From Dictyostelium discoideum (taxonomy: Eukaryota), in assembly GCA_000004695.1 (NCBI GenBank), contig CM000153.2:3584001-3648000 (forward strand): a stretch of DNA of 64,000 nucleotides, given 5' to 3'. Shown piece by piece: positions 6,065-13,379 of the stretch. Positions within the stretch are counted from its first letter, which is position 1. The number at the start of each line of letters is the position of its first letter. Under the pieces are notes generated by a model. The model was given only the letters and a program-made list of their open reading frames with translations. It did not search any database and was not told the DNA's origin. A program made the position numbers and the translations under genes.

Positions 6065-7549
6065 ATGGGTTATTCTTATGTTAAATATGATTCATTTACA
6101 ACATCTAACCCAGTAAATAAAGCGGTATTGGGATTATCTATTATAAGATTATTTATATTTTTTGTAATTTTCATATTAAATTTAAATCAAACGATTAAAG
6201 AAATTTTAATAGCAAAGAGAAAAAAAAAATTTATTTATAATGCACGTTTATTAACATATATTTCAATTACAATTTATCCATTTAGTAAGTAAATGAATAA
6301 TAATAATCTCAAAATTATTTTTATTATTAATATTTTTATTTTTTATAAAAAAATAATTAATAACATTGTTTTTATCAAATTAAAATTTTTTTAGCAAGAC
6401 TTGGAATGATTGGTGCATTTTTTTATGATAAGAACATTGATAACGGATCAATTACTGTGGCTATTAGTATTTGGGGAACTCTATTTCAGTACACAGAATG
6501 GGTAGGTTTTAAAGTTTTTTATTTTTATTTTTTTATTTTTTTTTAAAAAATAATATTAATTAACAAAAAAAATAAAATTAAATAATAATAATAAAATTAA
6601 TAAAAATAGGTTTTTATTGCTGGTTATTGGCTTAGTTTATTATATACCTTTTTTTTAAGTAAGGACATGGTGTTAGTAAATACAAAAAAAGCATGGCTAG
6701 TTTCTTATGGTATATTTGTAATTTTAGTTTTTTGGACAATTATTCAAACAGTTTTTAATTTTTATTATGTAGATTATATGGTAAATAATTTATTTTAAAA
6801 TTAATAATAATAATTATAGTTTTTTTTTTTTTTTTTTTTTTTTTTTCTTCTAACCATAATTTGTTTTTGTTTAAAAAAAAAAAAAAAAAAAAAAGAATGC
6901 AACATATGGTCCAGGTCAAATTGTTATTGTTTGTGGAATTGGTGGATTTTATTTTATAAATGGTGTTCTATTATTTAAATCAATGAAAAAATATGATCAA
7001 TCAGGAAATACTCAATTAGGAGAAAGATATAATAGAATTGTTAAAATGGTAGTTATATTATTAATTTTAGTAGTTAGCGTATTTTTAGTATACATAGTAC
7101 AATTTCCGATATTAGGATCAGAAGACCATCAAACATCAAATTATGCATTTTATTTAGTAAGTTGTTTATTAGAATTTATGCAATTACCAGTGGTTATGTA
7201 CTCTTTAGGTGGAGATTCTTTTAAACCTTATTTTAAATTCTTTAAATATGATGAAACTCTTAGCTCTAAAGGATATACAACAAGCGGTGGTGGTGCAGGT
7301 GGTGCAGGTTCTTCAGCTAATAAAAGTTGTGGTGAAATATCATTGGATGTCAATGATTCGTCGATGGTATCTAGAAATACAGAAACTACAATGACAGCAT
7401 CCACATTTAATAACACCTCAGCCTATTCACTAACATCTTCAAACATTACAAATAATACATCAACTTCAACATTTAATAATATTTCATCATCAACATTAAA
7501 CTCTTCAGCTGTTAATTTATCATTGTCCACAGAGTTAAATAAATATTAA
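6065..7549 (+). CDS. 7-TM membrane protein, paralogue A, about 383 aa; exons 6065..6284, 6395..6501, 6610..6780, 6896..7549
   Basis: Donors are A|GTAAGT, TGG|GTAGGT and ATG|GTAAAT; acceptors are tttttttag, aaaaatag and aaaaaaaag. 220+107+171+654 = 1152 nt = 384 codons. There are seven hydrophobic segments and a conserved motif MYSLGGDSFK before a Ser/Thr/Asn-rich tail. It is paralogous to genes at 7605..8945 and 12207..13379. Confidence 0.7.
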
Positions 7550-7604
7550 AAAAAAAAAAAAAGGGATAACAAATTTAAATTAAAAATAGATTTATTTTAA
7601 TATT

Positions 7605-8490
7605 TTAAACAGAATTTTCACTAGAATCTAAATTTGAACAACTAATATTTGGAGATTCACTGACATTACTAACATTTGATGAAGAAATATTTGAGATCAC
7701 ACTTGAATCTATTGATTTTTGAGTTTGAATGTTTTTTAATTTAATATTGTTATTATTATCATGTGCATCAGAGCTATAGTTACTATCAACAGTTGATGAA
7801 GATACACCACTATAATATTCACTCTTTGGATCTTCTGGTAATTTTTGATTATATAAAATTATATATCTTTTAAATGAATCACCACCCAATGAATACATTA
7901 CAATTGGTAATTGAGTAAATTCAATAAGTGAAGCTATTAAATAAAAAATATAATTTCCAGTTTCTTTTCCATTCCATTTTAAAATTAGTACTTGAACAAC
8001 AAACATAAATAATGCACCAAAAACTAATAATAAAAGTGCAAAAGATAAAAAAATAATTCTTTTATAACCTTTTTGAAAACTTTTAACTTTTCCTTTCTTT
8101 TTCATTTCTCTAATTAATAAAACACCATTAACAAAATAAAAAATACCAATACTAACAATTAAAATAACTTGTCCAACACCATATGTTCTATCCTAAATTT
8201 TTAAAATTTTTTAAATATTGTTTAAAATTTTTTAGTATAGATAATTATTTTTTTTTATTTTTTATGGTACAAAAAACTTACCATTAGTGGGAGATTGTAA
8301 AAATTAAAAACTGTTTGAACAATTGTCCAAATAATTAAAATAATTACAATTGACCAAGATGCAATCCAAACAATTTTAGTATTAGTTTTTACATAATCTT
8401 TGGTTAAAAAGAAAGTATATAAAAGACTCATCCAATAACAAGCAATAAAAACCTATATTTAATTTAAAAATAAAAAATAAATTTTATTAG

Positions 8491-8533
<43 letters not shown>

Positions 8534-8680
8534 CTTACCCATTCAAAATATTGAAACATAGTTGCCCAGATACTCATAACTGCCATAACTGAACCTCTAT
8601 AAATACTTTTATCATATCCCAAAAATTCACCAATCATTGCAGTTTTGACTAATTATTAAAAATTAAAAAAGAGTTTAATT

Positions 8681-8716
<36 letters not shown>

Positions 8717-8945
8717 CATACGTACTTAATGGGTAAATAGTAATACAGATATAAGTAACCAAACGTGCATTTGTAAAATAAACATTTCTTTTTCTTGCTG
8801 CAATGAATTCTCTAATTGATTGATTTAAGTTTAATAAAAAAAATAAAAAGAATATCAACATTCTAATAATGGACAAACCAAGGATTGCCTTATTAACAGG
8901 ATCAGACGTAGTAAATTCGTCCAAAACTTCATTCTTAAACACCAT
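7605..8945 (-). CDS. 7-TM membrane protein, paralogue B, about 362 aa; exons 8726..8945, 8539..8648, 8282..8452, 7605..8192
   Basis: Exon structure is the same as paralogue A: exon 1 is 220 nt in both and exon 3 is 171 nt in both. Donors are A|GTACGT, TGG|GTAAGA and ATG|GTAAGT. 220+110+171+588 = 1089 nt = 363 codons. Motif MYSLGGDSFK is present. Confidence 0.7.
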
Positions 8946-9583
8946 TCCTTTATTTTTACAAATTAAAAAATTTTAGAAATTTATCTCTTTTTTTCTATTT
9001 CTCTTTACTTTTTAGTGAGGTAGTTTTTGAAAATAAGTAAGACTGGAAGAATTTTTTTTGATACCCAACAAAATATAAAAAGACTTAAGGATTAAAAAAT
9101 TTATTCTAATAACCATTGTCATTGAAAGCCATATATTAATAAATTTTCAATTAAAAAAAAATGTGGAAATCTAAGATGGTTTGCTGAATAAAAAATTATG
9201 GCTTGTGGTTGGCCAATTTTTTTTTTTTTTTTATTTTTTTAATAATATCTCGGACGAATTTTGTTTTTTTTTTTTAGGACTAAATGTTAAATTAAAAAAT
9301 TGCACCAAAATGCATTCAAAAATAGATTTCGTTGTTCTTTTTTTTCTTTGGAAACTAAATTATTAGTATTAAAAAGAAAAAAAAAATAAAAAATTAATAG
9401 AAAGTCAACTTTTGCAATAACAAATCCAATTTATTTAATAATTTTTTTTTTTTTTTAAAACTTTCGCAGTTTGGTGAATGATATTTTTTATGAAAAAAAA
9501 AAAAATTATCTGCAAAGACATTGATTGTTTTTTTTTATATATTTTTTTTTTTTTTTTTCTTAACAAATATATTATTATTTTTA

Positions 9584-11491: not shown

Positions 11492-11502
11492 TTTTAGTTA
11501 GC

Positions 11503-11541
<39 letters not shown>

Positions 11542-11688
11542 CTTTTTTTTATTTTTTGCGAATTTCAGTGAAAAAAAAAAAAAAAGATTGGTAATACAAA
11601 AAACCTAGCTTACGGTCTAAAAGGAAAGTGTAGGAATTAAACATAAAAAAAATAGGTAATACAAACAAAATAACATTTTTATTTTTTT

Positions 11689-11720
<32 letters not shown>

Positions 11721-12206
11721 AGAAATAATATCTTTTTTTTTATATGAAAACACATGGTTAGGATTAATATTTTTTATTTTTTTATTTTTGTTTTTTTTTT
11801 TTTTTTTTGTCCAATAAATAAAAATGGTTTAAAATTTTTTTTTTTTTTAAACAAAAAGATAAGATTTTTTGATGTGATTTCATATTTGGATTTTTTTTTT
11901 TTCCCTCAAAAAGAATGGTGTTGGACAATTTTAAATGATTTCTATTTGACAGTTTTTGTTTTTTCTTTATTATACATAAAAAAAAAAAAAAAAAAAACTT
12001 ATTTTAAAAATCTAATCTCTGATAATATTTATTTAGGTTTTTGGGATAATTTATTTTGACTCCTTTTTATTTTTAAATATGATGAATAAAATTTTTTTTT
12101 TTTTTTGTTATGTCTTTTCTTTAATATTACATTATAAAAAAAAAAAAAAAAAAAAAAAAATAAAAGAAAGTAAAATAAAATAAATAATTATAAAATTTTT
12201 GATAAA

Positions 12207-12870
12207 ATGGGATATAAAGCAATAAAATTAGATGAATTTACATCAAATGAAACAATAAATAAAGCCATATTAGGATTATCAATAATTAGGTTATTTATTT
12301 TTTTAATATTTTTTATTTTATCTCTAAACCAAACTTTAAAAGAAATTAAAATTGAAAAAGAGAAATCAAAAAAATTTTATTTAAAAAATGCTAGAATTTA
12401 TTCATATGTCACAATTACATTATTTTCTTTAAGTAATATATTTTTTTTTTTATTTAATTATTTTTAAAACTATTTATTTATTTATTTTATATTTTTTTTT
12501 TATTTTTTTATTTTTTTTAAAATTAATTTTGGGAAATAAAAAAGTGAGAATGGCAATGATTGGAGTCTTTTTTTATGATAAATCAATTTATAATGGTTCA
12601 GTATGGTCAGCTATGAGTATTTGGGGTACGTTATTTCAATACTTACTTTGGGTATCAATTGCAGGATATTGGATGTCATTATTATATTCTTTTTTTTTAA
12701 GTAAGAATGTTGTAGCTAAAAATATAAATGCTGCTTGGAATGCTACATATTTAATTGGATTAGTTTTAATAATTTGGACTATTTCACAAACTATTTGTAA
12801 TTTTTATTATGTTAAATTAATGGTAAATTTTATTATAAATTAATAAACTAAAATTAATTAATTTATTAAA

Positions 12871-12901
<31 letters not shown>

Positions 12902-13379
12902 AATTTAGAATTTAATTTATGGTCCTGTTCAAGTTGTAATTATTAGTGGTATTGGTACATTTTATATAATAAATGGTTTTATATTAGTAAGAGGTATGAA
13001 AAGTCATGAAATGAATGGTAGTAAAATTGAAAAGTTAAAAGAACAATATAAAAGGGTTATTAGATTATGTATTTTATTATTTTTATTTGTTATTTTGGCA
13101 CTTGTATTATATTTAATACAATATCAAATTTTAAAACTTGAAGACTATGATAAAGAGAATTATATATTTTATATGTTTGTTTGTTTTTTAGAATTCTCTC
13201 AACTATTAATTATTATGTATTCTTTGGGTGGTGATAGTTTTAAAAATTATTTTATATTATATTCATTCAGTCCAATTCAAACAAAAAATGTAAATTATGG
13301 AATTAGTTCAAATATCTCTACAGCATCATCAACATCTTCTTCTTCAAAAAATGAAATTGAATTAAAAGTAAATGATTAA
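12207..13379 (+). CDS. 7-TM membrane protein, paralogue C, about 324 aa; exons 12207..12432, 12545..12822, 12909..13379
   Basis: The same phase-1 intron 1 as A and B (A|GTAATA ... aaaaag|TG) is present. The intron between the TM2 and TM3 exons that A and B carry is absent here, where the reading frame runs straight through. 226+278+471 = 975 nt = 325 codons. Motif MYSLGGDSFK is present. Confidence 0.7.

Follow-up and report, generated by a model that had tools for sequence, protein, structure and literature searches.

What are the three related membrane-protein genes that lie close together at one locus of Dictyostelium discoideum, and what might their products do? The genes, called A, B and C here, are found in a 64-kb window of the AX4 genome (the window being the whole stretch of DNA that was analysed), a region with an extremely AT-rich base composition and poly-Asn tracts. 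An earlier note had described them as a locally expanded, lineage-specific family of seven-segment membrane proteins, an observation that we could confirm in nearly all details. Taking the structural and evolutionary description alone, as one claim, we put the probability at roughly 85% that A, B and C are tandem members of a Dictyostelia-restricted, orphan family of seven-transmembrane (TM) proteins that adopt the fold of G-protein-coupled receptors (GPCRs) and are not covered by current domain models.

Gene models and extent of the family

The three genes were rebuilt mechanically as the following models, in which lengths are given in amino acids (aa):

6065..7549, plus strand: gene A (DDB_G0285685, Q54MS9), 383 aa; exons 6065-6284, 6395-6501, 6610-6780 and 6896-7549
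7605..8945, minus strand: gene B, 362 aa; exons 8945-8726, 8648-8539, 8452-8282 and 8192-7605
12207..13379, plus strand: gene C (DDB_G0285691, Q54MS5), 324 aa; exons 12207-12432, 12545-12822 and 12909-13379

The exons measure 220/107/171/654 nucleotides (nt) in A and 220/110/171/588 nt in B, with intron phases 1, 0 and 0 in both genes, and 226/278/471 nt in C, with phases 1 and 0, C being without the intron that A and B carry after a conserved Trp. All introns are short, 3-10% GC and bounded by GT..AG, and the reading frames are clean, with no internal stops. The junctions, phases and exon lengths described in the earlier note hold in these models, among them the 220-nt first exon and the 171-nt third exon of A and B, the phase-1 intron that follows the first TM exon in all three genes, and the phase-0 second intron common to A and B. 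The three proteins are 48-50% identical to one another, and tblastn revealed no paralogue beyond them in the 64-kb window.

A, B and C are already annotated but uncharacterised genes. Exact AX4 records exist for the proteins of A and C, which are annotated as hypothetical proteins; the exact sequence of B is not among the records of the protein collection and is close to P0009 by direct comparison. A second D. discoideum assembly, 99.7% identical across window positions 1-15565, carries genes of 383, 362, 635 and 324 aa in its independent annotation. The junctions of annotated sister-species orthologues are identical to those of our models, and D. firmibasis possesses an orthologue of each gene with a matching exon structure (two introns in the case of C). 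Between D. discoideum and D. firmibasis, the ratio of nonsynonymous to synonymous substitution rates (dN/dS) stands at 0.15 for both A and B and at 0.29 for C (0.50 in the tail of C), values indicating that all three genes are functional and under purifying selection, with C the least constrained. Literature searches with the gene identifiers, and with TOM1, THH1 or GPR137B together with Dictyostelium, found no paper on A, B or C.

P0001, a 97%-identical orthologue, served as the lead sequence for structure prediction and for the search of representatives. HMMER, run with the family profile against 1.84 billion cluster representatives, returned only 47 matches at an expectation value (E) <= 0.001; 18 of the 47 are named, and all 18 belong to Dictyostelia (Dictyostelium, Polysphondylium, Acytostelium, Tieghemostelium, Synstelium, Cavenderia and Heterostelium), as expected of the lineage-specific family that had been proposed. 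A word-indexed search with the family alignment gained one further protein. Several paralogues are present per dictyostelid genome: D. discoideum also carries DDB_G0282843, for example, and C. fasciculata has at least 7 family genes. Other dictyostelids also contain long "fusion" members (P0042, P0051, P0065 and P0021) with Cofilin and SH3 or beta-helix/DUF7035/EGF regions, probably the result of merging separate gene models (in P0042, labelled actin binding protein E, the Cofilin and SH3 domains precede the seven-helix part).

Predicted fold and conserved residues

An AlphaFold2 model based on eight sequences was mediocre (predicted local distance difference test score, pLDDT, 63.8), while the 23-sequence family alignment yielded a confident one (pLDDT 82.7; predicted template modelling score, pTM, 0.82). 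The latter comprises helices at residues 15-53, 60-85, 93-122, 127-161, 163-202, 205-238 and 247-270, followed by a short helix at 276-279; its seven long helices agree with the seven hydrophobic segments noted earlier. In the predicted model the seven helices take up the GPCR arrangement, with solved GPCRs as the nearest structures: the top Foldseek matches were all GPCRs, with TM-scores of 0.37-0.57. The fold class of the model is thus clear, yet the family is remote from solved structures, and profile searches of Protein Data Bank (PDB) sequences gave no match for it.

Lys and Arg residues number 19-21 on the predicted cytoplasmic side and 3-7 outside in each of A, B and C, an excess from which a GPCR-type orientation, N-out/C-in, is shown for the predicted topology. 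N-x-S/T sequons are located in the predicted extracellular loops. The tails beyond helix 8 measure 101 residues in A, 81 in B and 38 in C; they consist of about 50% Ser, Thr and Asn, so that the richness in these residues claimed for all three stands as a matter of composition, although the tail of C is short.

The decapeptide MYSLGGDSFK, which had been singled out as invariant, was located by sequence match in all three genes, once per protein:

7196..7225, plus strand: MYSLGGDSFK of A, aa 267-276
7869..7898, minus strand: MYSLGGDSFK of B, aa 266-275
13215..13244, plus strand: MYSLGGDSFK of C, aa 271-280

Its placement after the last TM segment has to be corrected, however: the motif covers the cytoplasmic end of TM7 together with the turn that leads to the short helix 8. 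The whole string is limited to the clade formed by A, B, C and a D. purpureum gene, and the wider family carries the signature [VI]-M-x-x-L...Y-x-x-F, which runs from TM7 into helix 8 and which, as comparison across the family shows, hardened into MYSLGGDSFK in this clade. Further conserved positions are given below (counts from the 23-sequence family alignment, gene A numbering):

R28, TM1: 22/23
Q42, cytoplasmic end of TM1: 23/23
E46, cytoplasmic end of TM1: 22/23
R61, TM2: 20/23
R75, TM2: 21/23
G91, first extracellular loop: 23/23
W109 and W116, TM3: 23/23 each
G189, TM5: 23/23
L192, TM5: 22/23
Residue 259, TM7: always acidic (18 E, 5 D)
Q262, TM7: 19/23

R28, R75, W109, W116, G189, the acidic residue 259 and Q262 combine conservation across the family with a position inside the predicted helices, the polar ones in TM1, TM2 and TM7 being buried in the predicted fold.

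Proposed receptor function and its alternatives

From the fold, topology, conserved residues and selection, we infer that A, B and C may be orphan ligand-sensing receptors, a proposal that, together with the mechanism outlined here, has a little less than an even chance of being right. A ligand bound from outside the cell or from the lumen would change the arrangement of the polar core of TM1, TM2 and TM7. The conserved TM7/helix-8 motif, along with the basic intracellular loops, would relay this change to a partner in the cytosol, either a heterotrimeric G protein or some other transducer, and phosphorylation of the Ser/Thr-rich tail would bring about desensitisation, as it does in other GPCRs of Dictyostelium and of animals.

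Several observations weigh against a receptor role of this kind. The Foldseek E-values are weak (best 6.5e-3, none <= 0.001), which leaves the family far from any solved receptor. The DRY, CWxP and NPxxY motifs, as well as the cysteine pair between TM3 and the second extracellular loop, are absent from the aligned sequences, and scans of A, B, C and 48 family members produced no Pfam 7tm_1 or Dicty_CAR match. Moreover, many proteins with a GPCR fold, such as TOM1, GPR137 and TMEM87, do not use G proteins for signalling. Compared with class A GPCRs (cannabinoid CB2, GPR6, S1P and MRGPRD), the family differs in just these features (the three motifs, the conserved disulphide, 7tm_1 and the Foldseek match at E <= 0.001), and identity is only 3-12%. 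With the Dictyostelium cAMP receptors and cAR-like proteins (class E) it has in common the organism, seven helices, short N-termini and Ser-rich cytoplasmic tails, which in cAR1 are phosphorylated, but it shows no Dicty_CAR match or detectable sequence similarity to them, and it is restricted to Dictyostelia whereas the cAR family is spread across eukaryotes.

A different role is suggested by the public databases. UniRef labels A and C, together with many family members from D. purpureum, D. firmibasis, T. lacteum and C. fasciculata, "THH1/TOM1/TOM3 domain-containing protein", evidently on the strength of an earlier domain model whose match we could not reproduce. On this account A, B and C would be highly divergent members of the THH1/TOM1/TOM3 (and GPR137-like) group of endomembrane proteins and would serve as scaffolds or regulators at the vacuole or lysosome, not as ligand-activated surface receptors; within that group, TOM1 acts as an anchor for the replication complexes of tobamoviruses, and GPR137B as a regulator of Rag/mTORC1. 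Both groups are indeed seven-helix proteins of similar size, with a core of ~290 residues and no accessory domains, and hhalign aligns only one segment of the family with TOM1, namely TM7, in register around a shared Glu (V-[LM]-Y-x-L against VE(I/V)LPSALVL(Y/F)IL), a resemblance that is suggestive but not significant. Elsewhere the motifs diverge, with LNxxQxxxE, W109/W116 and [VI]MxxL...YxxF in the A/B/C family and GWTTQKVF, MNFxVNGV and LRKLPPK in TOM1.

The current models and profiles argue against this relationship. As a positive control we used an Arabidopsis TOM1-like sequence, serving as a probe only, which scored 476 bits on the TOM1 family model PF06454 and retrieved 2,416 proteins; among the matches listed, 120/120 were plant proteins with PF06454, mostly named TOM1. 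The same model (gathering score 25 bits) was not among the matches listed for any of A, B and C (E <= 1) or for 48 family members at E <= 0.01, nor among the best 25 of 83 families at E <= 10. The precomputed Pfam column likewise holds only "-" where the protein is dictyostelid, and PF06454 in each TOM1 entry. When the family alignment was compared by hhalign with the single TOM1 probe, the probability was 0.2%, and it was 0.4% with a 29-sequence plant TOM1 profile; this profile is low in diversity. A metagenome scan recovered 33 clean near-full-length TOM1 homologues, and with a broadened profile (41 sequences, identity down to 44%, effective number of sequences 3.7) the probability was 0.2%. 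Real family members scored no higher than shuffled controls with a TOM1 hidden Markov model (HMM), reciprocal retrieval with the family profile drew no PF06454 protein from the 1.84 billion representatives (0/47), and profile searches of PDB sequences found no TOM1-family structure. An unvalidated GPR137B sequence, itself without a Pfam match, gave no significant alignment (hhalign probability 0.6%) and counts as a lead only.

TOM1 membership was accordingly set aside as a candidate assignment, there being no signal in Pfam, in the three hhalign comparisons, in the HMM scores against shuffles or in reciprocal retrieval; by these sequence-based tests the A/B/C family does not belong to PF06454; a very remote relationship is conceivable. 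The endomembrane role, the chief rival of the receptor proposal, we regard as the less likely of the two, and since the label is not reproducible with current models, we transfer no function from plant TOM1. The earlier note could not assign the genes to a receptor class; Pfam scans of A, B and C returned no significant match, and the public label that exists could not be reproduced.

Going back to the receptor proposal, no relationship of the family was detectable in the comparisons made here, whether with TOM1, with the cAR proteins or with class A receptors. The more ambitious possibility that it constitutes a class of genuine signalling GPCRs not recognised before, sensing for example DIF-1, MPBD, c-di-GMP or glorin, for none of which we know of an identified receptor, appears quite improbable. 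Still harder to defend is a role as seven-helix transporters, channels or hydrolases (of the SWEET/PQ-loop, microbial-rhodopsin or PAQR/adiponectin-receptor type), which we consider very improbable: the topology of PAQR proteins is N-in, opposite to the N-out charge bias of A, B and C, and Pfam gave no match to MtN3/SWEET, PQ-loop, bacteriorhodopsin or HlyIII. That one or more of the genes are decaying duplicates or annotation artefacts devoid of function, as the high dN/dS and short tail of C and the missing exact record for B might suggest, is scarcely credible given the intact reading frames, canonical splice sites, identical exon structures of the D. firmibasis orthologues, dN/dS values well below 1 and agreement of independent annotations on the lengths.

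Origin and surroundings of the cluster

In D. firmibasis the locus reads A (plus), B (minus), a 710-aa orthologue of dolK, the gene labelled dolichol kinase (minus), and C (plus), collinear with the window, while the syntenic site of D. purpureum holds a single family gene, P0005, flanked by the same WD40 and Gad2-domain genes. The contrast between one copy in D. purpureum and three, in the same order, in D. discoideum and D. firmibasis agrees with the local expansion inferred previously, in which the cluster would derive from local duplication of a single ancestral gene. A separate arrangement, with B and dolK ~20 genes away from A and C according to locus-tag numbers, was dismissed, the D. 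firmibasis locus and that of the second D. discoideum assembly both having the order A, B, dolK, C. Locus tags in recent Dictyostelium assemblies are non-positional (P0003/P0007/P0066 and P0009/P0012/P0015 among others), the tags of the A and C orthologues being consecutive, and distance between tags does not equate to synteny.

The distribution of introns is as follows ("both species" being D. discoideum and D. firmibasis):

Intron 1, phase 1: present in A, B and C of both species, D. purpureum P0005 and P. violaceum P0020; absent from none
Intron 2 (after the conserved Trp), phase 0: present in A and B of both species; absent from C of both species and P0005
Intron 3, phase 0: present in A, B and C of both species; absent from P0005, P0020 and P0022

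P0022, a D. purpureum paralogue, has a counterpart of intron 1 one codon later, in phase 2, and an intron within the same Trp codon as intron 2; in P0020 the nearest counterpart of intron 2 lies 3 nt upstream of its site, and P0005 has, in place of intron 3, an intron 13 codons downstream. In a bootstrapped neighbour-joining tree the genes group as ((A, D. purpureum) 74%, (B, C) 67%), and A and B are never sisters. Because intron 2 is present in both subclades (in A and in B) and an intron lies within 3 nt of its site in two outgroup paralogues, the parsimonious reading is that it was lost in C, as the earlier note had supposed, and independently in the D. purpureum gene. The same tree is a point against a simple recent local expansion, which is weakened by the grouping of the D. 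purpureum gene with A and not outside A, B and C. Either the duplications preceded the split from D. purpureum and copies were then lost, or duplication came later and B and C evolved faster. P0022 itself has as its neighbour, on the other strand, a gene for a 1290-aa DUF7035/DUF7034/EGF protein (L005 7618-11995).

Two further features lie within the cluster:

7550..7604, no strand: 55-bp gap separating the stop codons of A and B, which are convergent
9584..11491, minus strand: dolK (DDB_G0285689, Q54MS7), 635 aa, single exon, unrelated to A, B and C

The convergence of A and B with 55 bp between their stop codons, reported before, is exact in the window and in the second D. discoideum assembly; in D. 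firmibasis 179 bp separate the called genes. The sole AATAAA of the gap is on the minus strand (7591), and none occurs on the plus strand within 200 nt of the A stop codon. Because the only such signal in the gap is on the minus strand, the 3' untranslated region of A probably runs into the coding region of B, and overlapping antisense transcripts are possible.

As had been proposed, a gene labelled dolichol kinase lies between B and C: the 635-aa open reading frame found there has an exact AX4 protein on record and the UniRef name dolichol kinase. Pfam DOLK is matched weakly in the annotation of the second assembly, and CTP_transf_1 gives a weak match below the cut-off (E 5.7e-4, residues 422-605). 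The position of dolK is kept in D. firmibasis, and the gene is absent from the syntenic locus of D. purpureum. The protein contains several long poly-Asn tracts and is longer in D. firmibasis (710 aa) than in D. discoideum (635 aa); identity between the two species reaches 91% in the catalytic C-terminal part and only 69% in the N-terminal part.

On the downstream side, a gene for a Gad2-domain protein of ~700 aa directly follows C in D. firmibasis and the single copy in D. purpureum (L001 17793-20049 and L003 8887-11187). In D. discoideum it is skipped in the blastn collinearity (junction ~13500-13590), and tblastx over the 64 kb found no trace of it; the gene has apparently been deleted or relocated. 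Upstream, a WD40 (eIF3I-like) gene at window ~1800-4450, minus strand (also L006 3959-6069 and L001 6340-8382), is a single gene of 331 aa in both D. firmibasis and D. purpureum, but the second D. discoideum assembly has two calls in its place, one of 132 aa and one of 252 aa. Either the gene model may be split there or the gene may truly be disrupted. Very long poly(A)/poly(T) runs, of up to ~40 nt, fill promoters, B introns and intergenic DNA (5560-6060, 8480-8530, 8680-8720, 11500-11540 and 12130-12160), where base composition was the only feature seen. No tRNA genes were found in window 1-20000 and no Rfam families in window 4000-15000.

As it stands, the cluster is a correctly observed small tandem gene family, already annotated, uncharacterised in function and otherwise fairly ordinary, and the analysis has the further outcome that the public THH1/TOM1/TOM3 label is not reproducible with current models. 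Dictyostelium is a main model for chemotaxis and GPCR signalling. If the proteins are true receptors, they would add a family of which our literature searches found no description and which has multiple paralogues in each genome across all major groups of dictyostelids, and A, B and C would be candidates for sensing orphan developmental signals.

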